The notes beneath the pieces were generated by a model. The model saw only the letters and a list, made by a program, of their open reading frames with translations. It was not told the DNA's origin and searched no databases. A stretch of DNA of 60,491 nucleotides, the filler included, from Hausera hauseri (taxonomy: Eukaryota): the NCBI GenBank assembly GCA_046269625.1. It is 11 parts of 11 records of this genome, joined end to end, with 100 filler letters (N's around TTAATTAATTAA, not from the genome) between each part and the next. Parts side by side here need not be neighbours in the genome. Positions count along the whole stretch, not along the records: positions 36,794 to 41,424 come from JBJURY010496463.1; 10 more parts are not named here. The stretch is one strand, 5' to 3'. Made by a program: the position numbers and the translations under genes. Below are positions 3,915-57,560 of the stretch, in pieces (the first letter of the stretch is position 1; each line of letters opens with the position of its first letter).

Positions 3915-4870
3915 AATTTTCCAATTTGTTCAATAACTTTTTGTCAACTGTCTGGCAACTTCATGATTCCACGTTCATAAAACTTCTGATCCTTATCAAC
4001 AAAAGATTGAACCAAATGCGAATTTAGGTCATCATCATTAGTGTATATTTTACCATTCCATAAGTTTTACAAACTTCGAAATGAATGATAATCAGATGGC
4101 GCTGGATCAGGACACTATGGGGATGTAACATCGTTTCCCAATCTAGCTCCAATAATTTTACATGAGTTGTAAAGATGTATGAGGCCTCGCATTGTCTTGG
4201 TGGAACATGATTCCTTTGTGACTTGCCAAGTCTGGGCATTTCTCTTTGATTGCTTGCTCCAATTTCATTAATTGTTGACAATAAACATCTGAGTTTATCG
4301 TCTTGCTCTTTGGAAGTAGATCACAATACACAATACATTTGTAATTCCACCAAACTGACAGCATGATCTTTTTTGATACAATTCAGCTTTCAATGTGTTT
4401 TGTGCTGATTCATCACACTAGATCACGATCCGTTTTTCATCGACAGTGATGATTCACTTCAAAAAAGATCGCTACGTCAAATGGATCTCTTTGAAATTAT
4501 GCGGAATCCAAATGTCGAGCTTCTTAATAAATTCAATACATTTTAACTGATTTTCAATAGTTGTATGTGATACATATAACCTTTCTGCAATCTCTCGAAA
4601 AATTATTCAACGGTCTCTTTTAATCATAGCTCTGATTTGATCATCATCAACTTCAGTAGGTGGACCAGAACGTTGAACAACCTTGAGTGAGAAATCTCCA
4701 GACTGAAATATTTTATACCAATTTTGACACGGGCGTTTTGTTATACAATTAACACCATAAACGTCACATAGTCCATGTTTAAGTTGACGTTACACACAAT
4801 TTGTTTCTAACGTAAATTGCATTCTTTGAATAAATTGCATCATTTTGTTTTCTGTTCACATTTTAACTAC
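3915..4870 (-). mobile_element. Degenerate mariner transposase (mellifera-like)
   Basis: Motifs MLSVWWNYKCIVYCDLLP..TINSDVYCQQL, FHQDNARPH and GIMKLP..QKVIEQ, with multiple frameshifts. TIRs not identified. Confidence 0.85.
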
Positions 4871-12285: not shown

Positions 12286-13572
12286 TTAGGTTGGCAACTA
12301 AGTAACTGCCGATTTAACACATAAATATCTGTGACTATCTTTTTTAAAGACTTCTGTCAATGTTATGATATTTTCCTTCTGACAATTGTTAGCCGTGACT
12401 CTTACCCTGCATTACAATCAAATTTGGCATATTTTTGTTTAAATTTGTCAACTTGGTGTCAATTTTAATATGGAGTGCAGAAACGAGCATTTTTGCCAAA
12501 TTTTACATTTTTATTTCCATAAAGGAAAGAACGCAGCGTAAGCAGCTAAAAGGTTATGTGATGTGTATGGTAAGGAAGCCTTAAAAGAAAGACAGTGCCG
12601 AAATTGGTTTAACAAATTTTGTTCTGGAGATTTTTCTCTCAAAGATGACCAACGTTCAGGTCGACCAGTTGAGCTTGATGATGACCGAATCAAAGTTATA
12701 ATCGAGTCGGATCGTCGTGGGACTGTGCGAGAGATTGCAGAGAGGTTGAATGTATCACATACATCGATTGAGAAACATTTAAAACATCTTCAACTCGCTA
12801 AAAAGCTTGATATGTGGATTCCACATGAATTGAAAGAAATTCATTTAACGAAGCGCATCAACGCTTGCGATTTGCATCTTAAACGAAATGAAGTCGATCC
12901 TTTTTTGAAACGAATTATCACTGACGGTGAAAAATGGATTGTTTGCGATAACGTCAATCGAAAAAAATCATGGTCCAGGCGTGATGAGCCACCGCAAACC
13001 ACTTCGAAAGCTGATATCCACCAAAAGAAGATTTTGTTGTAAATTTGGTAGGATTGGAAAGATGTGGTGTATTTTGAGCTGTTTCCAAGGAACCAAACGA
13101 TCGATACAAATATGTACTGTCAACAACTGGACAAATTAAATGCAGCGATCAACGAAAAACGGCCAGAAATTGTCAATCGCAAAGGTGTCACTTTCCATCA
13201 GGATAATGCTAGACCACACGTATCTTTGGTTACTCATCAAAAATTGATAGACCTTGATTACGAATTGATGTTACATCCACTATATAGTCCTGATCTAGCA
13301 CCATCATGTTACTATTTATTCCGATCTTTGCATAATTTCTTGAATGATAAAACTTTTGATAATTAGGACGCTGTGAAATCGCACTTGGTTCAGTTTTTTG
13401 CTGATAACGACCAGAAGTTCAACGAGTGTGGAATCATGAAGTTGCCAGAAAGATGGCAAAAGGTCATCGAACAAAATGGAACATATATCGTTGATTATGT
13501 TTCATTGCAAATATAAAAATAAAATCTTTTGTTTGTATGAAAAAATTGGCAATTACTTAGTTGCCAACCTAA
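12286..13572 (+). mobile_element. Full-length (1287 bp) mariner, mellifera subfamily, inactivated transposase
   Basis: About 30-bp TIRs (TTAGGTTGGCAACTAAGTAACTGCCGATTT / AAATTGGCAATTACTTAGTTGCCAACCTAA) with TA on the left. Motifs WIPHEL, FHQDNARPH, HPLYSPDLAPS, with in-frame stops. Confidence 0.95.
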
Positions 13573-16640: not shown

Positions 16641-18330
16641 TCAGACGTATCCATATGCTGTGCCAACTTAGCAGAGTTCTCATAAATGTCCTCCGTGTAG
16701 ATGTGATAGATAAAACTATCAGTATCCATATACATCAGCTGTATGTACTTGAATATGGGGACCATGATGTCATAGTGGAATTTGTACATCAAGGTCGTTG
16801 ACAGGTCCAGTATTGCCATACCCACATATGTGGGCTTGTTGAATTGCAAGGATGTTTTTGGCATATGGATGCTGACTACGTTCTCCGCATATATGGTGCT
16901 GCTGTGGAAGTTTGGCTTGGCAATGAGCTTCTTTACCCGCTTTCATTCAGAGACCAGTTCGATGTAGATCCTGTTGCGGATGTTTTCCATGATCTTGCCA
17001 AAACGCAGTTGTTGTAAAGCTTGAATTGATCCTTCTCAAAGTCGTTCTTGGCATTTTTTCGCAGCTTCGTATTAAGACCGATATATGGCTTCAGCCAGTT
17101 GGACTGGCTGAACTTCAGGGCCCGATGGATCTTAGTAATGCGGAGTCCATTGCTGACAGCTTGCTGGAGATTTATGTAATGGACTACATATCACTCCCTA
17201 TTATCCAGATGGCAAGGCAGCTTTCTATGCTTTCCATGGAGCGGAGACTTTCTCTCAGGGAGGAAAGGCAGCTGTTGATGCCTTGTGTGGATAGAAGCCG
17301 GATATTCCATATCCACCTCTAGTATGAAGCCAGGTCCAGTATAGGTATGTTTTCAGGATGCTCGACCCACTTGAAGTCATAATATGGCAATGGGACGCCC
17401 ATTACCCATCCATACAAGTCGTTGGCATCCAGGTATGATATATATGAGTATTCCTTGTATGGATCATACTAGGCCATATACTTGTTGTTGGCCTCACTAT
17501 ACCTATGAATGGCCTGGCATATTCCGCCTCTAATGTCTCTCTCAATCATGAGGATCATGTCGTAATTTTTTATGATCTGCATTCTAATACCGATATAGCG
17601 CAGAATAGCTGCTCAACTCATCCCTGGAGCCGTGAAGGAATGAGCTGAATCCAATGCATTGCTCTTTATCGTAACATCCTTAAAGCTGTCAAAAAGATTC
17701 GTCAGAAGCAGCACGTCCGTCTAGAGGTATATATAGCTGTATTCTCCTCATTTTCGGCATTGGAATGCATACCAGATGTTCTAAGCATGCTGGTAGTCCT
17801 CATCACTGATACCGCTATCTGAGAAGATATTGTAAAAGTCCTTCTTGGCCGGCAATGAGGTCTCGTCCAGTGTTCCCCATGATGTTATATAGTCATAGGG
17901 AAACACGCCTTTCTTTTAGCAAGGTCAAATGTAGTGGGGAAGAACCGCTTCGTCTCCTTGAGTTCATCTGCAGGGAGGTTCTTCACTAAACTGTCCAGTG
18001 AAAACGACAGGAAACGAAAGCTCTCTATGAATCGAAGTTTAATGCGGTCCACATAATTAGTGTAAGTGATATATTTCTCCACAATGTTTTGTATCACATC
18101 TATATTACCATCAATGTTGCCTAATTCACGGATTATTAAATGGGAATCATAGCCACTGAGATTATGGAACACTACAGGCACATACGTACATGTTTTGCAA
18201 CCTAGATTGCAGTTGTTTCATGCTGCCCCTCCATATGCACCTGTAAAATGGCAGTGATCCTTGACTTTATAATTATCCTCGGTGAAGGACTTGTCGCACA
18301 AGTAACATGCTGTTGCCTTGTGCTATTCTT
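16641..18330 (-). pseudogene. Polinton/adintovirus PolB, degraded
   Basis: PVVFHNLSGYDSH (exonuclease), YLDANDLYGW (motif A), YMDTDS (motif C), with many frameshifts. Confidence 0.9.
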
Positions 18331-19880
18331 ACTCTTGAAGTAATGATTAAACGTTTGTCGTTATATTTGAAGAATGTAGCCGCTGATGCTTATAACGAGC
18401 TTCCTAACGATGAAAAGAAATCTTGGTCATCCTTGGTAGGAGGATTGAACCGAAAATTATTGCCGACAGTAACATCGCAACAGAACTTATGGCATTTAGA
18501 AATAGGGTGAAACAGAAGGGTGAATAGATAACACAGTTTGCATTTGCATTAAAGAAACTAGCTAATGGTTATATGAGCACCTTGAGAATAGCTAATGTAG
18601 CAAAAACTAAAACCGAAGCTGAACGCGAACTCGCAGAAAAAGCAACTCCGTCAGATTTTGACATCATGATGGCGACGCATTTAATTAATGGTATTTGGTC
18701 CCGAGATTTAGTGAAACAGTTGATTTTGGCCAGACCTGAGAATTTTGAAAGGACTTTACAACTGCCCCAAGACTTAGAAATGGCACTTGATAGATATGAC
18801 AGACATAATGATAGAAATGATAGAAATAATAATCGAAATGGTCGTAACGATAAAAATCGCAATGATAATCGCGGAAGACATGATACACGATTTAAAAGTA
18901 ATAGAAATGATGAAAATAAAAACAGTAATAACGACTATGGGAATAGTCGAAACAATAATTATGTTATCGATCGAAATATGAATAAGTTGAATCCCAATTC
19001 GGATAGAAATCGAGGAAACTACAAAGGTTCTAATTATCAAAATCGTTACGATGATAATCAAAATAATGATAGTCGACGAAATATAGATAGTACGCAAAGT
19101 TTGCCGAACCGGTACAATAGAAGCACAAATATGTCTAAGTCACCTATTAATGAAGGCGGTAGACAGAGAGTCAACAGAAATGGAAATTTAGTTTGTTTCA
19201 CTTGCAGTAAGAAGGACATATTGCAATGTCATGTCCAAACCCGCGTAGCCTAATAAGACTAGTATGATCAACGTTAACGAGAACTTAGAAGCGAAATATG
19301 GTGTTCATGGAGATACAGGTACTATTATCGACATACACGATTTGCGAAAATTTCTAGACGCTTAGCCTGAGACTACTAATCCACAAATTCTGATGGCCAG
19401 AAGAGAGTACGGAGATAAACTAAGATTATTAGAGGTCTACCACGGTTTAGCCGAACCAGAAACAGAATACGAGCATGCTATAGCACCCAAGCTAATCGAT
19501 ATGACAGGGAAGAAGAGTATTCCAATAATTAATAAAACGGTAGAAAAACAAGGAACTTTGACATAAGTCGACTTAGATGCAGAGCCTGAGTTCACAATTG
19601 ATAAAGCAAAAGAGTATCGAAGACGATATAGCCAAAAAAGAATTTATGGAACCATTAATACTTAAAATTACGAAAAGTAGAGGCCATAGCTCTTGACTTA
19701 AGTCGAAACGTAGAATTCTTTCATTATCTCAAGTAACTAAAGAAAAATTAGAAGAAGTAAAAGATATTAAAATCGCTGTAGAAAGAGACGCAAGACCTAG
19801 TTTAGACACACCACGAATTGGTTTAAACCCATCGAGTTGGACAAGACCGTAAAGTCGATTAACGAAATTAATGAGGACAA
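18328..19880 (+). pseudogene. gag: Gypsy gag fragment (same family as 37665-39056)
   Basis: EVMIKRLSLYLKNVAADAYNEL..WSSL, an N/D/R-rich tract and the knuckle VCFTCSK.GH, colinear with the gag of contig 8. Confidence 0.88.
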
Positions 19881-26900: not shown

Positions 26901-27074
26901 TTTGAAATAATGAAAGATTAATGCAAGTAAATGTCGCTCTGTATTGATTATTCAAAATTATCGATTTTATTGATCTAAGTTTTACTTGGTCTTAACATAT
27001 ATAATAGTTACATGGCCTTATCCCACATTACTTGATCAAAAAGACAACACGATATTTCTATACAACATTTATTG

Positions 27075-27119
27075 AACAAAGAATAACAAAGAATAACAAA
27101 GAATAACAAAGAATAACAA
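27075..27119. repeat. 10-bp tandem repeat (AACAAAGAAT) x~4.5 in the PolB 3' region
   Basis: Direct reading; the homologous region near 53965 has a single unit. Confidence 0.9.
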
Positions 27120-27130
27120 TGTGTACATAG

Positions 27131-30100
27131 TTACAATAATGCCACATGTCCATTAGGTAGTGTCTGAATTCCGTCTTCAAGAATGTGCCTCTTGTTATCG
27201 AACCAATCGAGACTTTTCTTCCGCAGCGCAACTGTAGCAATCTGATGTACCCGGGACTGGATCCTTTTCATATCGCTGACTATGTGACTTTGCTCCCGCA
27301 ACACTCTCAAAATCTCCAAAGCCATTGTCTTTAGCTAATGTTGCCCTTTGAACTCCCTTGGCTCGCTTCTTTACCTGACCACTTATATCGATGGCGTATA
27401 TTGTTTATCTCAATGCCACCAAACGGGTGATGATCTTCCCATTCACCTCGTTTTAGAACTTCCCGAGGACCATCTTGTTGGTTATTGAATAATTTGGATG
27501 ATCCTTCGGATAGTATGAGGTATCCATATACTGCGCCAATTTTGCATACTTTTCAAAGACATCATCTGTGTGGATCTGGTATATGAAACTGTCCGTATCT
27601 ATGTACATTAGCTGGAGCTACTTTAATGTAGGGGCCATGATGTTGTAATGAAAATCATACATCAATGTCTTGGATAGATCCAATATGGACATGCCCACAT
27701 ATATAGGCTTGTTAAACTCAAGTAATAGATGCTTACCAGGTTCTCTGTGTAGATTGTGCTGCTGTGGAAGTTGGGCTTAGCGATGAGTTTCTTTTCCCGC
27801 TTCCAGTCACATACCAGCTCAATGTTTATCCGGTTCCGAATGTTCTCCATAGTTTTGCCAAAGACCGAATTGTTGTAAAGTTTGAATTGGTCTTTTTCAA
27901 ACTCGTTCTCGGCATTGGCCCTCCATTGGGTATTGAGGTCTATGTATGGATTCAGCCATTTGGACTGGCTGAACTGTAGGGCCCGATGAATCCTGATGAC
28001 TTGGAGACCACTTTGGATGGCCTGTTGGAGATTTATGTAGTAGGATACATACCTTTCCCTGTTTTCAAGGTGACAGAGCAGCTTCTTATGCTTTCCATGG
28101 GGCAGAGACTTGCTCTCCGGCAGAAATCGCAGCTGCTCATGCCTTGTGAGGTATCTATATGGGTATTCTACATCCATCTTCAGTATATAGCCCGTATTTA
28201 CAGTGGGATTTAGGTCTAATATTTGGATGTCTTCAGGATTCTCGACCCATTTGAAGCTATCATAGGGCAATGGGTTACTCATTGTCCATCCATACAAGTT
28301 GTTGGCATCCAGATATGATATATATATGAGGATGCCTTTGATGGATCATAATCTTCTATGTATTTGTTGTTGGCCTCACTGTACCTGTAAATGGCCTGGC
28401 ATATTCACCCATGATGCTTCTTTCAACCATAAGGACCATATTGTAATCCTTCAATACCTGGAGCCTTATGCCGGTATAGCGCAGAATCGCTGCCCAGCTC
28501 ATTCCTGGAGCTGTAAAGAAATGGCCTGGATCTAATTTATGACTCTTAAGGATCACATTCCGGAAGCTGTCGAAGACATCTGTAAGCAGCAGAACATCTG
28601 TGAGGAGATAGATATCACTGTATTCCCTTATTTTCCTGCACTGGAAGGTTTGCCATACTCTTTGGGCATGCTATAATCAGCATCGCTAATATGACTGGAT
28701 GAAAACTGACTATAAAAATCCTGCTTGACCGGTAATACTTCTTCATGCAGTGTTTCCCATAATGTTATATAGTCATAGGGGAACACGCCTTTCTTCTTGT
28801 CGAGGTCAAATGCAGTGGGGAAGAACCTCTTCATCTTCTTGAGTTCTTTTGCAGGGAGGTTCTTCACTAAATAATCCAGTACAAAAACATGAAGCGGAAG
28901 CTCTCTATGAATCGAAGTCTAATGCGGCCCACATGCTTAGTGAAGGTAATATATTTTTCCTCACTGTTTGGAATGACATCAGTGTTCCACTCAATATTAC
29001 GCAGTTCCCGAACAATAAAGTAGGAGTCATAGCCACTGAGATTATGGAAAACTATAGGCACATATTTGCATGTTTTGCGACGTAAATTTCAGTTGTTGCA
29101 TGCTACACCTCGATATTTGCATGTAAAATGGCAATGATCTCTGACTTTATAATTATCCTTGGTGAAGGGCTTGTCGCACAAGTAACATGTTGTTGCCTTG
29201 CGCCACTCATCTTCTTGCTACTTCGACATGCTCATATTATCCTTATGCTGTTGAAGTATGTTTTCAAGTCCTTTCATGAAATGTGCTGCTGCACCTGGAC
29301 CTCTGAACAGAAATGGTTCATTGTTCAGTCCTTTGGCATACATACAATATGGTGAGAGTTCATGATATTGGTATGCTGTCGTGCTGCTATGTTGGAGATT
29401 AGGGCTGCAGCTGTGAACTGGGCTGAGAATGGCCTCAAAATCACAATAAACGACAATCGGCACCTTCTGCGTCTTCTCGAACTCCTTGAATTCCAGGTAA
29501 TCCTCCTTGGGGAATTCTGCTCGGATGCAATAGTTTGTATTACAGTAGGTCTTGTGTGTCACCAGCATTTCTGCGGCTGTGTCCCCATTAAAATGAGTAA
29601 AGTATCTCTTGCATATTTCCAGCCTTGATTTATGCTTGGATATTTGGGATTTTACGAGGTGCTCAAAATTCTTGATAAAAATAAAATGTCTGATTTCTCC
29701 ATCATCTAGCACGAGTATATCCCTGTGATCCTTCAATTTCTTCTTGCACATATGTAGTGGATAAAATTTGTCCTCCTCCAATCCGAAGATGTTGACTGAG
29801 ATGTTGTTCACGCTATTAAATTTCACGACTTCATCTAGGCTCAGCGGGAATGAAGTACAGCTGAAGTCGCATGTGTGCTGCACTTTGTCATATATTCAAA
29901 TTCGGAAAGCATTATGTTGATCCTGGACTAGTTTTGATAAAATGGCATACATGAAACACATATTGTCATTATTATGGACATTAACACATGTCCTTTCTTA
30001 ACTATTCACTCAGGAAGCAGTATGTAGGACCTGCCTCTCATGGGAGAATACTTGTGTACATGCACAAGTAATCTCTTTATTGTTGATAAAGTCCAACCAC

Positions 30101-31110
30101 TCTTTTTTCTTGGCTTTCTTCGGTTTCGCGCATGAGCCTTGCATAGTCCACAGTAATGAAATTCTTAATGTCAAAGGATTTCAATACTGTACTGTTCTTT
30201 GTCTTAAAGGCTCTATTAGACGGCTCTCCTTAGACATTGGTGAAGGTGGCTTCCAATTTGAAGTTCCACTTAAGGGCTTTCAGCTAAAACAAGTTGTTTT
30301 GGAGAATTCATGCTGCCTCCTCCTTTGAATATTGCAAGAATTCATGGAGCGATGTCCGCCCCAGTGCTGCTAAATAAAATATCGGCGAACTTTATTCTTC
30401 AGTGCAGCTGCGTCAACTGGCCGCTGCCTTGGCTTTATGATGGAGCATCTGCGGATAATACTTCTGATAGGCGTTTTGGTCCTGCATCAAGCCTTGCAAC
30501 TAAAGCAGGCTGTACAACTGGCTGTGTTGTTACAGCAGGATGCTGCTCATTAAATATAACCTTCTTTGGCTTTGAATTGAAGTCTGTCAAATGGGCAATA
30601 TGATATTTGTAAAACTGCATGTATTCTCCATCACATACAGCCTTATATTCAGGGCAAATATAATACAGGACTCAACTGAATTTGTATCCATAATTGCTCC
30701 TCATGGAATTGTGGCAATTCTGAGGCTGTGTATTGCACATGTGCAATACACATATGAACTGCATCTTTAATTTTCCTTTCGCATGGAAGTCGTTATTGGC
30801 ATATTGGTACTGAATATTTGTTTTTACGACTTGGTGAAGGAAATCAATTTCCGTTTATGGACATTGTAAAATTCCTCATAATTGATTTGGCACATTACCT
30901 CACATGTAGGACATATAATACTAAACCCTGTTGTACATATGGCCAAAGTACTTCTTCATAACACTGTGGCAATTTTCCGGCTCGTGGATTTGAGACAAAC
31001 ATTTGCTGTAAAGTTTGCACATCTAAAATCAACCAATTATTTGAGGAGCATAATTAAAAACTCACATTTCGTTGAAGTGATTTTGGAAATAATGAACAAT
31101 ATTGCCATAT
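27131..31110 (-). pseudogene. Near full-length Polinton/adintovirus PolB with Cys/His-rich N-terminal region, degraded
   Basis: VVYCDFEA, DHCHFTC.YRG (endonuclease VII-like insert), FHNLSGYD, KGVFPYDY, YLDANNLYGW, KLYNNSVFGK, YIDTDS, FDNKR..GH. The 5' boundary is approximate. Confidence 0.9.
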
Positions 31111-36793: not shown

Positions 36794-37664
36794 ATTAAGG
36801 GAGCAATATCTATTAGGTCTATATCCAATATTTCTATGTCGATATTACTTCGATTACTAACCGGTTTTTCTCTGAGCCGGTGAATCATTTCTAGGCGAAT
36901 TTCATCCATCATACATTCTAAACTGCGAGCTGCTCTCTTTAATTTCGGATTTGCTTCCAAAGTGGGCAATAATGTCTGAGCTTTATTGACTTTTAAGTTG
37001 ACTCTATCTTCATTTTTATTCCATCCTTCTGAAAATTCTACTCCGCTTTTGATCAATGATTCTAACTCCTGCTTCCATTTTAATAACGTTTCGGTTGAAA
37101 CTTCTTTGGATTGTTCTAAGTCAATTGCCTCAGCAAACTTCCCCTCACTACGCAGTTTCAAACTTTTATATAACTTTTCAGCGTATTGCTCCTTTCCGGA
37201 TATATCTACCTGTTCGATAATTTGTTTAAGCCTTTCTAGGTCAGACTGTAATATTTCTGACTTATAACGTTTGTTTCTCAATTTCATTAATTTATTGGCG
37301 TTTTTCCATGAATGTCGGACTTTCCACTTCTTGGGATCGAAATCGTCAATATTTGTTGTTTCTTCCTCACTAATGGCAAGTGGGCAGATCTCGTTAATTT
37401 CATTAGTTGAGTCTTCAGATTCCGCTACTCCGACAGGTGTGTAAACCAATTTCTGGTGTATCCAAACTATGGTCTGTGTCACCTCTTACAACGACGTTCG
37501 GGTTTTCCGTTTCTTCAATTTTTTCTCTGTTTATTTTGGAACGTAAACGACTTCTTCGCTTAATTTTTAAAGAAGGGCTACGACCTCTATTTTTCGTACT
37601 TTTTAGTATTAATGGCTCCATAAATTCCTTTTCTGCTGTATCCGCTGTATCATCCTCAGTGAGC
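36794..37664 (-). pseudogene. Frameshifted continuation of gag region (charged/coiled-coil, unknown function)
   Basis: ORFs 37415-37621 and 36794-37482 follow gag and are partly conserved in the copy at ~19600-19880. No protease motif. Confidence 0.55.
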
Positions 37665-39056
37665 TTAGCTACTTTTTCGACTAAACTCAGGATCTGCGTC
37701 TAAGTCGACTGCCGACGGTTTATTGCTTATCGGAATACTCTTTTTCCGTGTCATATCACTCCGTTTCGGTGCTATCGCGTGTTCATATTCAGTTTCTGGT
37801 TCTGCTAAGCAATGGTACACTTCTAGTAATCTCAGTTTATCCCCGCATTCTCTTCTGGCCATCAGAATTTGTAGGTTAGTGGTATCCGGTTGAGCATCTA
37901 GGAATTTTCTCAAATCCTGTATATCGATGAGAGTGCTTGTATCTCCACAAATGCCATACTTTGCTTTTAAATTCTCATTGATTCTAATCATACTAATCTT
38001 ATTTGGCTTAGTAAATGAGACATTACGTGAGTTTGGGCATGACCTTGATATGTGTCCTTCTTTGCCGCAAGTAAAACAAACCAAATTGCCATTTCTGCCG
38101 ACTCGCTGTCGACCGTCTTCGTTCACTGTTGACTTAGATCTATTTGCACTCTTATTAAACTGGTTTCGCAAACTTTGCATACTATCGGCAGTTCGTTTAT
38201 TATCATTGCTTTGGTTATCACCGTTTTGATTCGAGTAGTTTGGACCCTTATAATTTCTTCTATTTCCATCCCAGTTTGATCTGTTCGTATTAGCATAATT
38301 ATTACCTCTGCCATTTCTGTAACCGCCATTATTATTTCGATTCCCATAATTTCTGTTACCTGCAAATCGTCCATCGTCTCTTTCACGATTATCATTGCGG
38401 TCATTCCGATCATTATTCCTGTCGTTTCTATCATTATGTCTGGCATATCTATCTAGCGCCATTTCTAAGTCTTGAGCTAGTTGTAACGTTCCTTCAAAAT
38501 TCTCAGGTCTAGCTAAAATCAACTGTTTAACTAAGTCTCGTGACCAAATACAATTTATTAGTTGCGTCGTCATCATCACATCTAAATCTGGTGGTGAAGC
38601 CTTCTCTGGGGCGTCACGTTCTGCGTCCGATTTAGCTTTAGCTATGTTGGCTATACGCAATGTGTTTATATAACTGTTAGCGAGTTTCTTCAACGCAAAT
38701 GCGAATTGGGTTACTGATTCACCTTTTTGCTGTACTCTATTCTGAAATGCCATAAGCTTTTGCTGCGGCGTAACTGTTGGCAGTAATTTGCAATTTAATG
38801 CTCCTACCAGGGAGGACCAAGATTTCTTCTCGTCATTAGTGAGCTCACTATAAGTGTCAGCGGCTAAGTTTTTCAAATATAACGACAATCGTTTTATCAT
38901 TACTTCAGGAGTGAGGCTGGCACCTTCTGCGTGCAATTTATAAGTTCTCAAGAATTCATTAAGCCCGTCTAGGTCTTCATCATATGCTGGCAGGTTTAGA
39001 GAGTCAAAGGTAAAGATGTCCAGTTTCTGTGCTACTGGTGGATTATCAGTTGCCAT
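37665..39056 (-). CDS. gag: Gypsy-type Gag (capsid region, N/D/R-rich tract, CCHC knuckle)
   Basis: FQNRVQQKGESVTQFAFAL (MHR-like QxxxEsv) and CFTCGKEGHISRSC; lies downstream of an LTR and PBS. Confidence 0.92.
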   Translation of the reverse strand: MATDNPPVAQKLDIFTFDSLNLPAYDEDLDGLNEFLRTYKLHAEGASLTPEVMIKRLSLYLKNLAADTYSELTNDEKKSWSSLVGALNCKLLPTVTPQQKLMAFQNRVQQKGESVTQFAFALKKLANSYINTLRIANIAKAKSDAERDAPEKASPPDLDVMMTTQLINCIWSRDLVKQLILARPENFEGTLQLAQDLEMALDRYARHNDRNDRNNDRNDRNDNRERDDGRFAGNRNYGNRNNNGGYRNGRGNNYANTNRSNWDGNRRNYKGPNYSNQNGDNQSNDNKRTADSMQSLRNQFNKSANRSKSTVNEDGRQRVGRNGNLVCFTCGKEGHISRSCPNSRNVSFTKPNKISMIRINENLKAKYGICGDTSTLIDIQDLRKFLDAQPDTTNLQILMARRECGDKLRLLEVYHCLAEPETEYEHAIAPKRSDMTRKKSIPISNKPSAVDLDADPEFSRKSS

Positions 39057-39432
39057 TTTATTTACGTTATTTGGTTCTAAATTTGCTTTATTTGCTTTAG
39101 GTTTTTCGAGTGCTATTTTAAACTGTTTATTTTGTGCGAAAACGTCTTATTTAATCTTATTCTCGGAATTTGAAAGTTTATCTACCTTTTTTGTTTCTCT
39201 GTTTATATTTCTACGCGTTTCACGCATAGGTGAATTGTCTTTTAATATATGGTTTATTCCTGGCCTATCAATGTTTGTTCACAAGTTTTGTTTACTTATC
39301 CCCGTAAGAATAGCCTATATACCCAATTTAAATTTCCGATTTTGAAAAAATCAAATTACTCGATGTAATGGCGCTGTTCGCCGATGTGTAATTATTTAAC
39401 TCTGATACGTAAAGTTTAGCTAGGTACAGACT

Positions 39433-39450
39433 GTCCTGCTAGGGTCGCCA
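39433..39450 (-). promoter_or_regulatory. Primer-binding site (18 nt, probably tRNA-Arg)
   Basis: TGGCGACCCTAGCAGGAC lies 2 nt after the LTR CA end and is complementary to a tRNA 3' end ...GUCCUGCUAGGGUCGCCA. The tRNA identity is inferred. Confidence 0.8.
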
Positions 39451-39452
39451 AA

Positions 39453-40102
39453 TGTTATATATTGGGGTGGACCTTATGCAGCTCCCACTGTACAACAATT
39501 TATTATACTTAAAATTAGATTTCTATGCAGGCCGGTCTACCGTAATCGAATAGACTGACTGTACCTTAACGTTAAAACACTGTGCGGGTTAATGCGTGCG
39601 GTCCTGTGCAATTTGTTAATGAAATTCTTCTCTTAACTATGAAGTTTACGTATAGAATTTAGCCTTAATGTCGTCTAATCACCCTTAAGGGGCGATGGAA
39701 ATTATTCAGGGATTTTGAAAATCAACACGGAATTACCGATATCTTTATTCTGCACCACAGATCAACAATTTGATTCGATCACTCTTAGATAAGTCTTTAG
39801 AAAGAAATTTTTTAGTTCGCACTCTTCTCTATTTCAAAACTTCTGACTTCTGGTTTTTGACTTGCCTTTTATATATCTCACGCTAATGATTTTTTTACGC
39901 CTCAGCCAATTTTTATTCAATACTTTTGAATTTCCTTTATTAAATATTTATTTTTCTTCAATTCTTTCTCATTTAGTTCTAAAAATTTTCTGTACATAGT
40001 ATCGATAATAAATGAAAATACTATTTTATGTTCATGAATACAATTGATGCTTGATTAAACATTTATATACACTATTGTTGTTTGTCTCCTCATTTCACAA
40101 CA
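39453..40102 (-). repeat. LTR (650 bp), TGTT...AACA
   Basis: Inverted termini, bounded by a PPT upstream and a PBS downstream. Confidence 0.88.
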
Positions 40103-41155
40103 TTTCTCCTCCTTGAACGGCATCCTCGGATGTGCCTATTGCGTCAGGAGAGGTGCCGAGGCGACGGGGATTCCGCAACAATTCCATTCGTTGTCTTAGA
40201 CTGGGTCCAGAACTGGTACTAGGCTGTTCTTCTCTGGGATTAGGTTCCAATTCATAACTATGGTAGGGCTTAATTCTAACTATTCGGGTATGGCTACCGT
40301 TCGAATAGTACTTCAGATCAGCAGCTTCGGCTCGACATACTGGACATGTGGTCTTCCCATTATCCAGCGTCTATTTCTCCAGACAGTCTCTACAATATTT
40401 ATGTCGACAGTCGGGGTTATTTAGCACAACGTATCCTTGCTTCAGGTACGCCTCGCACACTGGACATTCGTCTTCTTCCTTTGCCCAATTCTCATCGTCC
40501 AGATCCACTCTCAACAGAATCTCAATAGGCTCTACTATCAACCCTTCTTCATCTTGGTATAAATAAGCGTATATCCTTTTTTGCTTCGGATTTATGGAAC
40601 TGTTCTTAGGATCACACCCAACGGCGATTAGGGTCAAATCGCTGAGAGTGTATCGATCTACATCCAGAACTTCACCAGTCGATTGGTATTTTTGATATTG
40701 TTTCTTTAACAGCAGCTTAAGTGATTTATCCACAGGAAATAATACTTTACCATTTTGTTTGTACTGAAATATTGGGGCAATATACTTTTCGATTTTGGGA
40801 TTTTCCCAGACATACGTGTTCGGGTAAACTTGTCTGGCAGGCAATAGTTTGACAAAAAACATCGCTTTTTTAATCTTCTGTTTACTATAGTATTTGTGGC
40901 TACTAACATCCTTGAGTAGTCTGCAGTTGTAGAATAATGGACATTTTCTGTGGATGTCTTCTTTCGTAAGACATTTATTTTGGTTATTTGTTCTTCCTGT
41001 TTTCTTTTTGGTTTTACTACGGTTTTTTCTATACGGGGCTGCATCCTTGGCCCTGCGGGTTTTGCGGTTGATCGTTCTGGTTTAAGGTCCTTTCTGCCCG
41101 TTTTGGGTTCCTCTTTCGATCTCCTTTCACCTCTCTTGCTTTTCTTCTTGAACAA
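40095..41155 (-). pseudogene. 3' accessory ORF of the LTR element with a C3HC4 RING finger
   Basis: CPVC-x15-CRHKYCRDCLEK*TLDNGKTTCPVCR. After the single TAG at 40371-40373 the frame stays open through the PPT and ends at TGA 40095-40097 inside the LTR. A Lys-rich upstream part is in another frame. Confidence 0.8.
40103..40114 (-). promoter_or_regulatory. Polypurine tract
   Basis: AAGGAGGAGAAA immediately before the LTR TG. Confidence 0.8.
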
Positions 41156-41524
41156 GTAATCGAAAAAGGAGGTTTTACTTTTTGTTGTTTTGCCGCTTTC
41201 AATCTCTGACTTTCTCTGTTCCTCTTCTATGCATTTTCAAAGTATTTCGGGTATCTTAAATGGACTATTGCTTGCTGTGGCACCATAACTGGTACTGGGT
41301 CTTCCGTTGGTGCGTGCTTTATTTACTGTCTCCTCCGTATTCAATCCCTGTATGGTTATTTGGTAGTTCCAGTCTGGTTTAATTTCAACATTCCTGGGTG
41401 GAGAGTACGAGCACAAATGCCTACNNNNNNNNNNNNNNNNNNNNNNNNNNNNNNNNNNNNNNNNNNNNTTAATTAATTAANNNNNNNNNNNNNNNNNNNN
41501 NNNNNNNNNNNNNNNNNNNNNNNN

Positions 41525-43037: not shown

Positions 43038-45381
43038 TCAGGATTGGTTTACAGTGGCACGGAAAACACCGTACACAACACAGACGTCATCAGGAACGGG
43101 CACCTTCTTCAAAAATTCATCTAGTTGTTTCAAGACGAAATTGTGCGGCAAGTCAGTCTGAAGAAAAAACCCCAATTAAATGCGGTGGCATTCACTCCAG
43201 TCCATTTAACGAACATTAATCAACAACCCCTCCAGTCGACCGAGTAACCAGAACCGTGTCTCATCGGTAATGGCCAATTGAGGATCGACGACAGCTGGTG
43301 GATTGGTCATGTAATCTATCAGCAATTCCGACAGACTCATCCGGTATTTCGATTGACGGACGGGTTTCGTGGAGTACTGGTTCAACCGACACAACAGACC
43401 GGACAACACCTGAATCACCTGGTCCATGTATCGACGTCGGGCAGCGCTGTAACTCTTCTTCGCTTCCGTTTTCGACAGATCACTCTCGTCATTTGCATCT
43501 TCGATTTCCTGCAGTTTGTTCCACGCGCTATTCTCTTCGATCGACGCTTTGTCGAGTGCACTGTTGATAATTTCCCAGATGTAGAAACAATTCAGTTGAT
43601 TGAACATTTCATCGGAGAACAGCCAACAAATGACGACAGACGGCTGGACGAGTTCGACATCTATCAGCCGCTGCGTGATCACGACCAGAAACTGCTGTTG
43701 CTCCTGCCAGACGCCGAACAGACTGTGCATCATTTCCAATTGGTCTTCGTCAGTCGACATTAATTCTTTGATGACTCGGGAAAATTTGTCGATGAACAGA
43801 AACGTATGAGTGAACGTTTTGCATCCGACACTCAGTAACGCCGTCATGAATGCGTCGATAACGCGTTTCGTTACACCCGGATACAGACCGTCACCAAGTT
43901 CAATTGTCTCGTTCTTCGGTGATTCAATGGTCGGTTCTTCCACTGGCAACGGGGAATCCACTTTCTCATCTCCATAGTTTTCCGTTTCCATTTCCCCGTT
44001 CTCACTGTGGTTCTCATTCACCTCGGGTGAATCTCCTTCGGCCAATTCTTTCTTTGGTTCAAGGCGTACTTCATCGATAACCTCCATTTTCAATGGTCCG
44101 TTGTTTTTTTCGTCCTCCAATCCATTGAGAAACGCGATTATGTCATCCGACGACGAGCCGCTTCTCAGTAAAATCATCAATCGTTGAACGGCTTTCTGGC
44201 ACGGTAAACTCCCTGCACACACCGAATGACCGTCAAATAAACCAAATGTAATTACTGGGCGCCCCTTCGCCGTATTTATTGACGGATCCCGGCGGTTTTG
44301 GTAACAGTCGTAAAAATTCCACGGGTACGATGGACTTAATATGGTCGAAAAACGCCAGTCGCATAATTCGCTGAAGAACTTCCATGATAAATCGGGGTTT
44401 CGGTTTATGGAACGAATCAGCAGCACAGTATAACCAATCAGACCAACTCCATTGGTATTTGAAATTACTCAGATGGTGAGAGAACCACAACATGAATCGA
44501 TCGATACAGACCGGACGCATACGTTCCAGTCTATCAAATAGAATTTCCGTAACCTGGGCAAGAACTAATGGAATGGAATTTGATGCTTCTCGACACAATT
44601 CCAACAAGACAGAATTGTAGTACAATTGCTGGTGATCGGATCGTGGTAATTTGAACATTTCCCCTAACACAGTCTCGACAATCATGTACGATATCGGCAG
44701 ACGAACTCTCATTGGCAGGGCAATCAATGCCTTAGCACTATGTGCGGGATATGAACCGATATCAACAAACATTTCATTTACCAAATTTTCCGGTTCGTGC
44801 AAAATCCATTGAGGATGATACGGTACTGTTCCTCAACGAGAAATCTCTCGATTGAATGGGACCCCGGTAAAATCAATTGTTCGACTTGCGGTTTCATTTC
44901 AACGTCCATTTCTTCTTTTGTCGAAACGACTTCCGGATTGTTGTTCTTATCCTCCAAACTGGGGATTGCTTCGGTTTTTGTCGTCTGTAATTCATCTTCC
45001 AACACATCGGTGTAATCCAACAAACGGAATATCACCATTGGTAACGGGAAAACACAGACAGACAATGTCAATGACAGCTAATTTGGTTTTTGTAACTATA
45101 TGAAAGGTGAGAAACGGATGAACTATCTACCTGTGGCAGTCGATGTGGTCGTGATTGTTGTACGTGAACAGCCAACACTGGATCGTTGTATAGTCGCCAG
45201 AGAACTCGCTCTCGCCAACCTTGAGTTCGCATATTTCGCAATTGATTCCACAAACAATCAATGTACTGGTAAATGCGACGTGAAAAATGGATGAACGACA
45301 TTTACAAATAGACTCACGTCTTCTTGAACCTGGTATTCATTCGTTGTCCATACTTGAAATATGTGTAAATAAAACGACACC
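43038..45381 (-). CDS. NCBP1: Nuclear cap-binding protein subunit 1 (CBP80), spliced, 5'-incomplete
   Basis: QED|YIDCLWNQL, VIFRLLDYTD, LPGSHSIERF, YMIVETVLGEMFKLP, WFSHHLSNFKYQWSWSDW, KTFTHTF. GT-AG introns at 43158-43214, 44213-44255, 44738-44781, 45078-45130 and 45266-45317 restore the frame. Stop at 43038-43040. Confidence 0.92.
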
Positions 45382-49192: not shown

Positions 49193-51730
49193 TTAATAAA
49201 AGGTTTTTGAAAAATATTTGCCGGGCGAATAGTGCACAATGATAACTCTCGCCTCATCGTACTTCTTATTGAATGACGACAATACATTCGAAACATCTAC
49301 CAAACCAACAAGGTTATTTGGATTATAAAATCGACTTCCGAGACCTAAGAAGTCTAGCAAAACCACCCAAATTTTCATAATGACTGGAAGATTCTTTTGT
49401 AGTTTCTTCCATTGTAGGTTCTTTTTCGTAATTTTATCAGCAATGGTCTTCAGATTTCTTATTGAAGTTGTGTAATGTTTTTCAAGATCGTATTCCTTCG
49501 TGATTTGTTGCATAATCTGCACCATGTTTTCTTCTGGTACATGTCTGGAACATTGGACAAAGGACTTCCACCATTTCTAATATTTCTTTCACATCCTCGA
49601 GAAATAGCTGTTTGATTACTGGAAGACTCATAAATTGGAATTCTCGATGTTACTGAACACGATTCCATAGAAACTGTCGCGGTACTTCTTAAACAACCAT
49701 CCATAATTTTCGACTTGTCGACATAGAAAATGAAATTTGGATTTTTGGTCATATTTATCCAAAATTGTAGTACAAAAATATTACTTTTCCACAAATACAG
49801 AGTAACTTCATCGGTAATTGAAAGAGATTTTTCAATGTCATCGAAAAGTTCGAAAAGAAAATAAACTGGCGTTAAATAGGATTCTTTTGACACAAGAAAT
49901 TGAGAATGGAGATATGAACATTTTCCTAATAATTGAGATGATGCATTTAACTCGCCACTAATTGAATTGAACAAAGAATTTGACTAGTGTTTGAGATCCT
50001 CTGGTTTCCAATCCATGATGCATTGGAAAAGTCATCAATGGATGGATATAAACTTTTTTCTTTGCTAAAAGCATCATCAGTGAAGATTCTTTGTTTATAC
50101 CTTCAGTGAATGAATTAAATGGAAATTTGTCTTGTCCATCCATGGCTTGATTTAATGAATCGGCACTCGGTAAAGAATTGACTCGCAATTGTAAATGAAC
50201 TTTGTTTTAATTTCTCATAGAATGTGTAAGTCTCTCCGATTATACAACATTCATTGTATCTGTAACTTCAACTGACTCCGAAAGAAACTTATTTCCACGT
50301 TGCATATTATAATGTTTCAGTGTTAATGACAACATATTCCTGGTTCAACACTGACACACTACTCGTACGATCGATATCGTTTAATGCGATTTTCGTGGCA
50401 TTGCTCATGAAATAGCGACAAGTCTTTTTCATAAACTGTGGATAAACATTCCACCGTTTGGGATTTTTCATGGTTTTCTGATTCAGCAAATACCATAATA
50501 GCATAATCGAGAATTTTTTGTTTTACCTGATATATACTGTCCAATGTCAGCACTTCAACCTCCATATTTTCCATATCGATTTTCAAGAACAATTCTGAGT
50601 TGTTCATCAGTTTTAAATTTAACTTTACACTGGCGAATATTTTAATAGTTTCATACTCAATGTCTCCAACTAATATATAGTCGAATGTCAACACATATTT
50701 TGCCTTATCTGCTACGCAGTCGACTAATCCTTGATTTATTTTGCACTTCATTGCTCTGTATAAATTAAAAAAAACGCTTTCTAATTTCTCCAGCCTTATA
50801 ATTATCACACGTGCAGATACTGAACCAGTTGCTAATGACATTTTCCACGATTGCTTCTGATCTTCGAAACAGCAGTTTTTCTTCGCAACTTTTCTGGAGT
50901 TTTTCTGCCACTTTGTGTATAAGAATTTTCACAATTTCAATAAAATATTGTGGATGTCGAAACAGTATCAAAGTCAAAAGAGATGCAGTCAAACTTCTTT
51001 GTTGAGAACTACAAGTACTCTCCATTATACTGATTCATTCAAGTAACTTTTCCTTTGTCAGTAAAACCTTTTCGAATTCTTCATCGATCTGATCATAATC
51101 TTTCGGTGTTTTCGACAAATCCAAATTGAGGAGTTGACTCAAATAGTCATTAAATGATAGCAGTTGTCGAGAAGTCAAAGTTCCCTAATTTGAATAAGAA
51201 TTAACGGCCGTGTGGTATTCCAGGAATGCTTTTCTCTGTAAATTCAAGCAGCTCATTTGTCTTTCATCTCGTTGAATCGATACTTTTAACGTAACGTTTA
51301 TCTTTTTATAGTTATGTAGCAAGTGGTAATAATTCCAGGATATTCTTCCGATGAATCCAACCAAAATCATGACGATTAAAATGAAACACGCACAAGGTAT
51401 GAAAATTACGTTAAATACAGAACTTCTGGAACTAGTTGTCTGGATCACTGGCAAAGTTGTAATATATTTGTTTTATCCAATATAACGTGTCATTTGACGA
51501 ATTACAAAAAGTATCAGGAACCGAATTATTGCAAAGAAGTGAACAAAAATCGTAATCATTGTCTTGTATGATACACAAAATATTCAGAAGTTTGTTCTCA
51601 ATCGTATTTATCTGTTGAAAGTTGACACGTCTCTCCATAATTTGGTTACAGAATTTTCCAAACACAAGAAATATTTCCATATTTGTTTCCATATTTATCC
51701 CACTTCTAACTCCATTGTTGGTTACCAATT
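49193..51730 (-). pseudogene. Plexin-like gene (TM + cytoplasmic RasGAP/RBD), intronless and frameshifted
   Basis: TM VIFIPCACFILIVMILVGFI; cytoplasmic motifs LLFRRSEAIVE..NWFSIC, GLVDCVADKAKYVL, DSIYQVKQKILD, YFLFELFDD, LWKSNIFVLQFWINMTKNPNFIF.VDKS..MDGCL. Confidence 0.85.
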
Positions 51731-52758: not shown

Positions 52759-53575
52759 ATCCCAAACAGTGAGGAAAAATACATCACTTTCACTAAGCAT
52801 GTGCAAAATCAGGTTTCGCTTCATAGACAGCTTTTGTTTCATGTCGTTATCACTGGATAGTTTAGTGAAGAACGTCCCTGCAGAAGAACTCAATGAGACG
52901 AAGCGGTTCTTTCCCACTGCCTTTGACCTAGTCAAAAGGAAAGGAGTGTTTCCCTATGACTATATAACTTCATTGGAAACACTGGGTGAGTCCTCATTAT
53001 ATCAGTGATGAGGACTACCAGCATGCTCAAAACGTCTGGTATGCATTCCAATGCAGAACAATAGGGGAATACAGTGATATTTACCTCAAGACGGATGTAT
53101 TGTTGCTGACGGATGTCTTTGAGAGTTTCAGGAATGTTACAATGAAGAGCCATGCATTGGATCCGACTCATTTCTTTACAGCTTCAGGAATGAGTTGGTC
53201 AGCAATGCTGAGCTATACCGGTATTAGGCTGCAGATAATTAAGGATTATGACATTATTGTTATGATTGAGAGAGGCATTAGAGGCGAAATATGTCAGGTT
53301 ATTCATCGGTATAGTGAGGCCAACAACAAGTATATGGCAAATTATGACTCATCCAAACAATACTCGTATATCATATACCTGGATGCAAAGAACTTGTATG
53401 GATGGGCAATGAGCGCCCCATTGCCATATATAATAACTTCAAGTGGTTTGAGCATCCTGAAAACATCCCTATACTGGACCTGGATCCTACTGGAGATGTG
53501 GGTTATATACTGGAGGTGGATATGGAATATCCAGCTTCCAACCACACAAGACATGAACAGCTATACATTTTCCCA
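52759..53575 (+). pseudogene. Polinton/adintovirus PolB internal fragment
   Basis: RFIDSFCFM..SLD.LVKN, KGVFPYDY, YLKTDVLLLTDVFE, YLDAKNLYGWAMS. Confidence 0.9.
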
Positions 53576-53979
53576 AGTTTGTCACATTTTACATACATCC
53601 ACACAGGCAAACACACAGATATATATATTAGCTATACCTTTTCTCAGGTTAATTCCACTTTACATGCACAGACATACACATGCACACCATATATCTTAAT
53701 CATTCATTTCTCAAGTTACTCACATTTTTACACACACAAGACATAATCATTCATTTCACAAGTTACTTCATTTTACCCATACAAACACACACACACTATA
53801 AATGTGTTTAGCGTTATGTCAAAGTTATATTGTTACTAAATAAATGTGTTATGAAATTAGTTAGTCGTAATCTATATAAGTTACATACTTTTACTCGGCC
53901 TTATCCTATATCCCACATTACTTGATCAAGAAAAAAACACGATATTTCTATACAACATTTATTAAACAAAGAATAACAA

Positions 53980-56900
53980 TATTTACAATGCCACATGTCC
54001 GTGAGGCAGTGTATGGATTCCATCGCTCTGGATCTGCCTCTTGTCATCCATCCAGTCTAGGCTTTTCTTATGCAGTGTTACTGTTTGGATGTTATAATCC
54101 CTAGATTGGATCCTTCTCATTTCCAATATGATGAGTCTGAACCGGCAGAACTCTCACAGTCCTCAAAACTGATCTTGGCGAATGTAGTTCTTTGAACGCC
54201 CTTGGCTATGTTTTTGATCTGACCACATACATCAATTGCATATATTTTGGGTCTAAGAGCTACAAATCTCGAAATGATTGCTACATTCACCTCGTCTTTA
54301 AATTTAGCAAGGACTTTCTTATTGGCAATTGAAAAGTTGAGATGTTCCTTCGGATAGTCCGAGGTATCCATATGTTGGACCAATTGGGCAAAGTCCTCAT
54401 ATATCCTCTGTATGGATCTAATAGATGAAACTATCAGTATCAATATACATCAGGGTCTTTGATAGATCCAATATTGCCATACCCACATATATGGGCTTGT
54501 TGAACACCAATGCTGCTTTCAGCATATGGATGCTGACCAAGTTCTCAGCATATATGGGGCTGCTATGGACGTTGGGCTTGGCAATAAACTTCATTGCCCG
54601 CTTCCAGTCACATACTAGCTCAATGTTGATCCTATTGTGGACATTCTCGATGGTCTTGCAAATAACGCTGTTGTTATATAGTTTGAATTGATCTTTTTTA
54701 AAGTCGTTCTTGGCATTAGTCCGCAGCTTCGTATTGAGATCTATGTATGACTGCAGCCGCATGGACTTGCTGAACTGCAGGGTTCTATGGATCTTAGTAA
54801 TACGAAGTCCATGACTAACTGCCTCCTGGAGATTGATGTAGTGAACTACATACTTCTCCCTATTACCCACATGACAGATAAGCTTTCTCTGCTTTCCATG
54901 GGGCGGAGGCCTGCTCTCCGGAAGAAAAGGCAGCTGTTGATGCTTTGCGTAAATAGAAGCCGGATATTCCATATATACTGCCAGTATGTATCCCGTATCT
55001 CCACTGAGATCCAGGTACAGTATAGAGATGCTTTCAGGATTCTCGAAACATGTGAAGTTATCATATGGCAATGGGGCGCTCATTGCCCATCCATACAAGT
55101 TGTTGGCATCCACGTATGATACATATGAGGATTCCTTAAATGGATCATACTGAGCCATATACTTGTTATTGGACTCACTATACCGACGAATGACTTGGCA
55201 TATTCCGCCTCTTATGCCTCTCTCGATCATAAGGATCACATCATAATCCTTAATGATCTGCAGCCTAATACCAGTATAGCGCAGCATAGCTGTCCAACTC
55301 ATCCCTGGAACCGTAAAGAAATGAGCCGGATCTAAAGCATCGCTGAAACTCTCAAAGACATCTGTAAGCAGAAGCACATCTGTGAGGAGATATATATCAC
55401 TATATTCCCTTATTGACCTGCATTGGAATGCATACCAGACGATCTGAGCATGCTGGTAATCAGCATCACTGATATCGCAATCACAGAGGATATTGTAAAA
55501 GGCCTTCTTGTCCGGAAATGAGGTCTCATCCAGTGTTTCCCATGATGTTATATAGTCATAAGAAAACACGCCTTTCCTCCTGACGAGGTCAAAGGTAGTG
55601 GGGAAGAATCGCTTCGTCTCCTTGAGTTCTTCTGCAGGGAGGTTCTTCACAAAACTGTCCAGTGAGGACGACACGAAACGAAAGCTGTATATGAAGCGAA
55701 GCCTGAATTTCCCAACATGCTTGGTAAAGGTGATGTATTTTTTCTCACTGTTTGGGATCACATATATATAACGATCAATGTTGCCTAATTCTCAGATTAT
55801 GAAATGGGAATCATAGCTACTGAGATTATGGAACACTACAGGCAGATATGTACATGTTTTGCAGCGTAGATTGCAGTTGTTGCGTGCCGCGCCTCGATAT
55901 ATACATGTAAAATGGCAATGATCCTTGAATTTATGATTCTCCTTAGTGAATGATTTGGAGCACAAGTAACATGCTGTTGCCTTGCGCCATTCTTCTTGTT
56001 TCCACGAAATGCTCATTGTATCCTTATACTGCTGTTGCATATCTCCAATCCTATGAGCCATATCTTCAAGATATGATTCGCTGTAGTCATTTGGCATACA
56101 TGCAATACGAGAGTTCATGATATTGGTATGCCGTTGTGCTGCCATGTTGAAGACTGAAAGTGCAGCTGTGAACTGGACGCAGGATCGCTTCAAAGTCGCA
56201 ACAAATAACTATTAGGACCTTGATCTTCTTCTCGAACTCCTTGAATTCAATATAATCCTCCTTGAAAAATTCTGGCCTGATACAATAATTGTTGTTGCAG
56301 TACATTTTGTGCACTGCAAGCTTGTCCACTGCTGAATCACCACTGAAATGGGACAAGCATCGTTCACATGTTTCGTAATTTGGCATCTGACTAGACGCTC
56401 AAAGTTCTTGATCCAAACATAATGTTTCATTTCTCCATCATCTATTAGGAGCAGATCCCTATGGTTTTCCAATTCAACATCGCATATCCGCAGGGGATAG
56501 ACTTTGTCCTCATCCAATACAATGATATTGATTGATATATAATCATGATTCGACTCAACTTATTTACTTCATTTATGGATGGTGAGAACTTCATACATTG
56601 GAAGTCATAGTTGTTCTGAAATCCTTATATAGCCAAACTCGAGCAGCATTATATTGATCCCGTAGAACTTTTGATAGAATAGCATACATGAAACACTTGT
56701 TGTCATCATTAAAGACATTGATGCATGCCTTTTTCCCTACGATGCATTCCGGCAGCTGAATATAAGAACTGCCAGCATTGGAGAGTACTTGTTCACATAC
56801 ACAAGCAATCTCTTGATGGTTGCCAGAGTCCATCTGCTCTTCTTATCCTAGCTCCCCTCAGCCACATAGATCAGCTTCTCGTGCGCTTCTTGCATCCATT

Positions 56901-57560
56901 CTGCTATATTGGTGTTTTCCAATATGGGTGTATTTTTGGTCTTGAAGGCCCTATTGGATTCTTTGCCATCAACATTAATGTATGTGGCCTCCAGTTTCAT
57001 ATTCACCTTAAGGGCTTTGAGCTGCGCCATGTTGTCCTGGAGAATCCTCTCTGTCTCGTCCTCTCTGTATAAGAGGAAGTCTTGGAGCGTTGTTTGGCCA
57101 GTTGCATCAATAACATAGCTGCGGACTTTTCTCTTTAATGCTGCAGAATTAACTGACCGCTGTCTGGCTTTTTGGTGGAGCCGCTATGCCTGATGAGCCT
57201 GGTGCGCCTGATGGGCCTAATGGGATGTGAAATAAGCATAGGAACCGCACATCTGATTTTCTTTTGGGACACTAGTCATTGGCATATTACTTTTGAATGT
57301 CTTTCTTCGATTTTGTGAACGAATCCAGATACTGTTTATGCTGGTTGTAAATTCGTCGTAACCAATCCGGCACACTATCTCACATGCAGGACATACATAG
57401 TATTGAGTCCAATTATGTTGGTACGCAAAATAATGCTGCATTACACTGGCAATTCTGCTCCTCGTGTTTCTGCGCTATGCAAAATTTGTAGAAGTTGCAA
57501 ATCTAAACAAACGAATTATTTGAGGAGGGCATATAACAAAACTTACCATTCTTGGGAGTA
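53980..57560 (-). pseudogene. Near full-length Polinton/adintovirus PolB (same family as 27131-31110), degraded
   Basis: GSSYIQLP..KKACIN..DNKCFMYAIL, CDFEA, KDHCHFT, YVDANNLYGWAMS, KLYNNS, YIDTDS, FKDE..LRPK.Y. Shares 3' flanking sequence with 27005-27150. Confidence 0.92.

Follow-up and report, generated by a model that had tools for sequence, protein, structure and literature searches.

The minus strand at one contig end of our window is best explained as the 3'-terminal part of a Ty3/gypsy-type (Metaviridae-like) LTR retroelement in which a large accessory gene immediately precedes the 3' LTR, and the sequence of this gene points, with a probability of roughly 60%, to an element-encoded RING E3-type ubiquitin ligase whose target is left open. 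The window, i.e., the whole stretch of Hausera hauseri DNA that was analysed (60,491 nt), is made up of 11 short contigs with N-padded linkers between them. The RING-bearing contig occupies positions 36794-41424 and reads, on the minus strand, basic region, conserved domain, RING, tail, polypurine tract (PPT), LTR, primer binding site (PBS) and gag. Its features are as follows, P0001 being an intact relative of the accessory protein.

36794..37699, minus strand: coding stretch after gag, about 900 nt, running to the contig end, of no assigned family and without a protease motif
37665..39056, minus strand: gag, with a capsid-like region, an N/R/D-rich spacer and one CCHC knuckle (zf-CCHC 28.4 bits, above cut-off)
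39433..39450, minus strand: PBS, Arg tRNA type, beginning 2 nt past the LTR
39453..40102, minus strand: LTR, 650 nt, with TGTT...AACA ends, bounded by the PPT and the PBS; single copy in the window
40095..40895, minus strand: accessory gene, 3' portion; homologue of P0001 residues 610-870 (126/271 identical), with one TAG inside
40103..40114, minus strand: PPT, 12 purines within the reading frame, followed by TGT
40335..40466, minus strand: RING-HC (C3HC4) finger with all eight ligand positions present; three Pfam models above cut-off
40371..40373, minus strand: premature TAG between ligands 6 and 7, by which the window copy loses the last two ligands; P0001 is open in this region
40467..40895, minus strand: conserved domain of about 140 aa, 61/143 identical to P0001
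40896..41424, minus strand: decayed basic linker whose frame differs from that of the RING part; contains a stop (41239-41237) and runs off the contig end
41425..41524, no strand: artificial assembly linker that terminates the RING-bearing contig

The first-pass annotation had described a complete C3HC4 pattern once a single TAG is read through, and this was borne out by our analysis. The eight ligands lie at 40466-40335 on the minus strand with the spacing C-x2-C-x15-C-x-H-x2-C-x2-C-x12-C-x2-C, a pattern with a single occurrence in a six-frame search of the window and none in 60 block shuffles. With the TAG read as X, the window copy scored above the cut-offs of zf-C3HC4 (26.4 bits, cut-off 21), zf-RING_2 (31.6, 27.3) and zf-C3HC4_2 (29.4, 27), while the RING of P0001 passes natively. 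The frame ends, as previously reported, in VQGGEML and a TGA at 40097-40095; the LTR begins with its TG at 40102, so that the stop closes at LTR base 8. The absence of an integrase before the PPT was likewise corroborated, since a Pfam search upstream of the PPT on this contig found neither an integrase nor any other family besides the RING.

The window copy itself is a pseudogene, with two stops and one frame change, and is unable to work as such because ligands 7 and 8 are missing and further breaks are present. The span of 40095..41424 originally proposed for the gene is upheld by homology from 40095 to about 40895, where the homologous frame begins, whereas the sequence upstream of this point is in a different frame and holds the stop at 41239-41237. 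In the frame from stop to stop, the initial 62 residues (41081-40896) gave no match to P0001, and 40896..41424 resembles P0001 residues 459-622 weakly, in one of three frames, at a score that was reached by 27 of 500 shuffles and is not significant. The earlier description had missed that the window copy is dead and that its intact relative is about three times longer and contains a degenerate DEDD exonuclease domain.

This relative was obtained by a full HMMER scan of 1.84 billion representative proteins, which returned 77 hits, 12 of which were scanned with Pfam. One of the 77 was a true relative, P0001 (870 aa, library E 1.3e-60), spanning query residues 63-328 end to end; 75 were centred on the RING and one was a repeat artefact. 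P0001 is 46% identical to the window frame over the aligned residues (pairwise E 6e-70) and is open through the RING, which lies at residues 747-790 with the same spacing; the stop at 40371-40373 has no counterpart there. Outside the conserved domain, identity amounted to 30/43 in the RING, 14/31 in the next stretch, 13/40 in the tail and 8/8 in the last residues, suggesting that the RING and the cis-acting junction are under the strongest constraint. A tblastn search of the window with P0001 gave one match, at 40895-40098, the three other matches having E values above 2. Word-indexed searches for further relatives yielded none among 1910 candidates for the window frame (180-574 aa) and P0001 itself alone among 7295 for P0001 (478-1523 aa), and whole P0001 had no usable match in the protein atlas. 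The architecture of the accessory gene is accordingly described from two sequences, the window copy and P0001, the latter represented once, on a contig of 16,242 nt.

The final eight residues of P0001 are those spelled by the PPT/LTR junction of the window. Because the PPT and the opening LTR bases supply the last codons of the window frame, this conservation is most simply read as that of a cis-element translated in frame, the alternative being a conserved C-terminal peptide motif, and the last residues of the P0001 tail would be dictated by the PPT and the LTR start. P0001 is very likely itself of element origin, its PPT and LTR being deduced from residues. A 46%-identical protein that is open through the RING and has the same junction-encoded end argues for an element-borne gene, as the first-pass annotation had proposed, and strongly against the possibility it had raised that the RING frame is host flanking DNA. 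An explanation by such flanking DNA, or by an assembly chimera, beside a solo or 5' LTR could appeal to the short, repeat-rich contigs, to the order 3' ORF-LTR-PBS-gag, which can come from repeat collapse, and to the second LTR not found in the window. It is, however, largely refuted and barely credible, given that the PPT lies inside the frame and that the diverged P0001 ends in the same junction residues; even a join within a shared LTR would still put the ORF inside the family of LTR 39453..40102.

We also consider it highly improbable that a fragment of a host gene was captured passively, with no benefit to the element. The window copy is broken and only one relative is known among the 77 hits, as would be expected of idle cargo, but an 870-codon intronless frame has stayed open at 46% identity with uneven conservation, and no cellular parent spanning the RING and the adjacent domain occurred among the 77 hits.

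The surroundings of the gene are in keeping with a Ty3/gypsy element. A TG...CA-ended LTR bounded by a PPT and a tRNA-type PBS was found, its limits being deduced from the TGTT...AACA ends, the PPT and the PBS, and a gag with capsid and CCHC knuckle follows the PBS. Among the minus-strand purine runs of at least 12 nt in the window, 29 in number, the PPT is the one with TGT directly after it, and the first eight bases of the PBS are unique in the window, both strands counted. The gene crosses the PPT, as does nef among the retroviral nef/bel-type 3' genes. Nef has no ligase function, and its gene covers a large part of U3; the description "nef-positioned" given previously holds for the crossing but not for the extent, the LTR overlap of the RING gene being only 8 nt. 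Neither a second LTR copy nor a target-site duplication was found within the window, in which the RING-bearing contig is short, and Rfam gave no match at E up to 1 in this contig. In the accessible supplement of PMC13524379, the nine terminal PBS bases match tRNA ends typed Arg_CCG and Arg_UCG_UCU.

LTR 39453..40102 closes the RING-bearing unit as its 3' LTR and at the same time opens the gag-bearing unit as its 5' LTR. A single LTR that is preceded by a PPT and followed by a PBS and gag would reflect an LTR-sharing tandem, the integration of a one-LTR circle or a join made in assembly within the LTR; in each case the RING ORF and gag belong to one LTR family. The pol gene of the RING-bearing unit is out of reach because the linker 41425..41524 closes the contig; pol genes in PR-RT-RH-IN order sit on other contigs of the window, none joined to the RING-bearing contig.

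The gag matched Retrotrans_gag below the cut-off (E 0.0085), and a word-indexed search with its capsid region (362-2000 aa) found nothing among 1052 candidates, which is weak evidence; a long polyprotein for this gag was not found. A second gag copy, 73% identical in DNA, lies at 18320-19828 (plus strand), abutting a polB fragment. No D-S/T-G protease motif occurs in the three frames of the 1.24 kb after the gag knuckle, which fits a gag-env-pol rather than a gag-pro arrangement. On two other contigs, a gB-type fusion domain (PF24664) was found upstream of protease and RT. These contigs (11337-6629 and 26639-21611, both minus strand) represent two gypsy families, A and B, 41% identical in the RT region, with a gB-type Monjiviricetes fusion domain before the protease; at 11337-6629, env and protease share one frame. 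The similar divergence of two family A pol copies (74%) gives a weak hint that gag 37665..39056 may belong to family A. After the integrase of both pol genes (about 6889 and 21071, minus strand) we observed a hydrophobic signal-like segment and then coding-like sequence, which after the family A integrase had no Pfam match and is possibly another 3' accessory gene; by tblastn, P0001 had no sequence link to the post-integrase regions of either family. A link between the RING-bearing unit and the env-bearing elements is plausible but indirect, the two not being physically joined in the window.

Fragments of gypsy-type pol, polB-type and mariner-like sequence abound in the window as a whole. Protein-primed polB (DNA_pol_B_2) is present in several decayed copies, at 16644-18337, 27019-30446 and 52759-57181, which are presumably Polinton-like, and two diverged copies of one transposase (3882-4743 and 12582-13518) were labelled by eye and are taken by us to be mariner-like. 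Domains of the MIF4G-like (cap-binding protein type) and plexin cytoplasmic kinds occur in long uninterrupted frames at 43206-44832 and 49459-50928 (both minus strand), which are possibly retrocopies or intron-poor host genes.

P0001 comprises a hydrophobic N-terminus, a DnaQ/DEDDh-like region at about 245-415, a basic linker with an NLS-like KKRRK stretch at 547-551, the ~140-aa domain (610-740), the RING-HC finger and a tail. The N-terminus is its sole hydrophobic segment; if it were a cleaved signal peptide, the RING would lie outside the cytosol. A globular-looking region at 100-235, before the exonuclease-like domain, had no match in any library searched. The ~140-aa domain matched no Pfam family at E up to 10 and had three weak PDB matches, none convincing, and beta-propeller matches of this domain (P0054; PDB 1l0q) were rejected as summed repeat noise. 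The predicted structure of P0001 was of low confidence (pLDDT 30.9 alone, 33.4 with a two-row alignment).

Homology of the nuclease-like region to the DEDD fold is indicated by concordant weak matches in five libraries, all below curated cut-offs where such exist and covering mainly the first half of the fold. With residues 236-417, both PDB matches were DnaQ/PolC (E 1.1e-4 and 4.5e-4), 10 of 11 NCBIfam matches were named DnaQ, PolC, DinG or 3'-5' exonuclease, the single Pfam match was RNase_T (E 0.012), and eight of nine plasmid records were annotated 3'-5' exonuclease. Phage records gave an exonuclease type in 16 of the 25 matches listed of 31, these being near-identical phages at E 3. Whole P0001 had one PHROG match (PHROG 192, E 1.1e-4) and none among phages. 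A profile of three exonucleases gave 36.5 bits, 1000 shuffles reaching no more than 2.8; the test is circular rather than independent because these enzymes were chosen as P0001 matches. Of the four acids that, with His or Tyr, make up a DEDD active site, P0001 keeps at most one, in an alignment whose register is uncertain at Exo I and Exo III; judged from these residues, the domain is very probably without nuclease activity. It is seen in P0001 alone and not in the window's family, because its counterpart would lie beyond the contig end.

The RING itself has features suggestive of a ligase. The best PDB matches of P0001 were RING E3 ligases, e.g., RLIM and listerin. In both the window copy and P0001 a hydrophobic residue is retained between the first two ligands, Pro follows ligand 7 and Arg comes immediately after ligand 8; these are E2-contact and "linchpin" positions of active RING ligases. 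Through the conserved ligands, these E2-facing positions and the PDB matches, the RING domain suggests ligase activity, and E3 activity in intact copies appears quite likely. A structural zinc or dimerisation module devoid of ligase activity would be in keeping with the observation that RING fingers also dimerise, as noted for RAG1 in the accessible part of PMC1131882. We regard this as improbable, since neither copy has lost the E2-facing positions and no other domain is as well conserved as the RING.

As for the purpose of the putative ligase, counter-defence is a tentative reading that we place somewhat below even odds, and it is drawn from analogy with the Burro cargo, ICP0 and PML-1 (see below). 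The RING would recruit a host E2 and act as a ubiquitin ligase, while the dead nuclease fold would bind nucleic acid and bring the ligase to host factors, such as silencing or restriction proteins, on element RNA or cDNA; these factors would then be tagged with ubiquitin and removed. Lentiviral Vif, Vpu and Vpx borrow host ligases and encode no RING, and a RING counter-defence gene of its own is not known from any vertebrate retrovirus. In animal LTR retrotransposons, protein-level counter-defence is poorly documented, and a conserved 3' RING/pseudo-nuclease gene would be an assayable candidate whose substrates would name the host factors restricting these elements.

Alternatively, the protein may serve the element's own cycle by binding, exporting or protecting genomic RNA, as CERV does, or by ubiquitinating Gag for particle release. 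The nucleic-acid-binding type of fold and the NLS-like basic stretch of P0001 would suit such a function, CERV is a nuclear accessory protein required for genomic RNA export in Cer1 (accessible part of PMC10309623), and the rotifer DEDDy ORF3s have been proposed to process element RNA ends (accessible part of PMC5408684). We nevertheless hold this to be unlikely. RNA trimming by P0001 would not be expected because the nuclease acids are mostly lost, and CERV has helical, multimerising, G-protein-like domains, with no RING-HC finger or exonuclease described in the accessible part of PMC10309623. Homology to CERV was likewise rejected because of the domain content given there.

Accessory ORFs of LTR retroelements are already known, and what is unusual here is the RING and pseudo-nuclease architecture at the 3' end; in the literature searched, which was mostly non-subscription and did not extend to Repbase or Grohme et al. 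2018, we found no LTR element whose 3' gene encodes a RING, or that has a gene combining a RING with a pseudo-exonuclease. One of the closest settings is that of the GAG-ENV-POL errantiviruses, whose env-before-pol order is reported, in the accessible parts of PMC13524379, only in nematodes, bryozoans and flatworms. These elements have a gB-type env before the protease, like the two other contigs of the window, and their set, in which a PBS was found for 1151 of 1512 elements, includes Arg-type PBSs, as in the RING-bearing contig. The env at 26639-26175 resembles, by eye, the six Smed (Schmidtea) rows in the accessible supplement of that survey; together with the reported range of the env-before-pol order, this makes a flatworm the likely host. 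All six Smed elements lack a recorded LTR, the method of the survey having used 3-kb flanks, 99% identity and an upper limit of 14 kb; their 3' ends are therefore undescribed in the accessible parts of PMC13524379. A long 3' region could explain the missing LTRs, as could other causes. The main text of the survey, as accessible, contains no occurrence of RING, zinc finger, ubiquitin or accessory. Our analysis suggests that the 3' regions of GAG-ENV-POL elements, unannotated in these parts, may hold multi-kilobase accessory genes.

Burro/GYPSM1, a planarian giant gypsy with env between gag and pol, carries cargo tied to ubiquitination and apoptosis (MATH/TRAF, BIR, BCL2-like and SUMO-like domains), and an "AIR1 with RING Zn-finger" motif is listed (section covered of PMC6431247). 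Its cargo resides in a 4,900-5,100-aa polyprotein or an upstream ORF, it has two or three knuckles compared with one in the window gag, and a 3' RING-HC or pseudo-exonuclease ORF is not described in that section. In the 30 window ORFs scanned with Pfam, most of the element being missing, no BIR, MATH, BCL2 or ankyrin family was found. The DEDDy ORF3 of the rotifer elements Juno and Vesta is, like the domain in P0001, a DnaQ-superfamily exonuclease carried as part of an extra ORF of an LTR element; its catalytic residues are intact (DEED), it is RNase D-like, and RING does not occur in the accessible text of PMC5408684. P0001, in contrast, is DnaQ/DEDDh-like, has mostly lost the acids and has a RING after the nuclease-like domain. 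RING domains are also found near transposon-derived RAG1-like genes (accessible part of PMC1131882), and the accessible text of PMC7264820 contains no occurrence of RING.

Outside retroelements, HSV ICP0 provides a virus-encoded RING acting on host defence, by the titles cited in the accessible part of PMC13659232, although from a DNA virus. According to the same source, human PML-1 combines in one chain a RING and a catalytically dead DEDD fold (PXL, nucleic-acid-binding). PML-1 is a host defence protein with the reverse domain order, B-boxes and a coiled coil, and the likeness to P0001 is an analogy only. It is a doubtful proposition that env-bearing invertebrate (probably flatworm) retroelements carry the gene for a ubiquitin ligase of their own, which a dead exonuclease fold directs to host defence proteins bound to nucleic acid; if true, the accessory protein would be a retroelement mirror image of PML-type defence factors.
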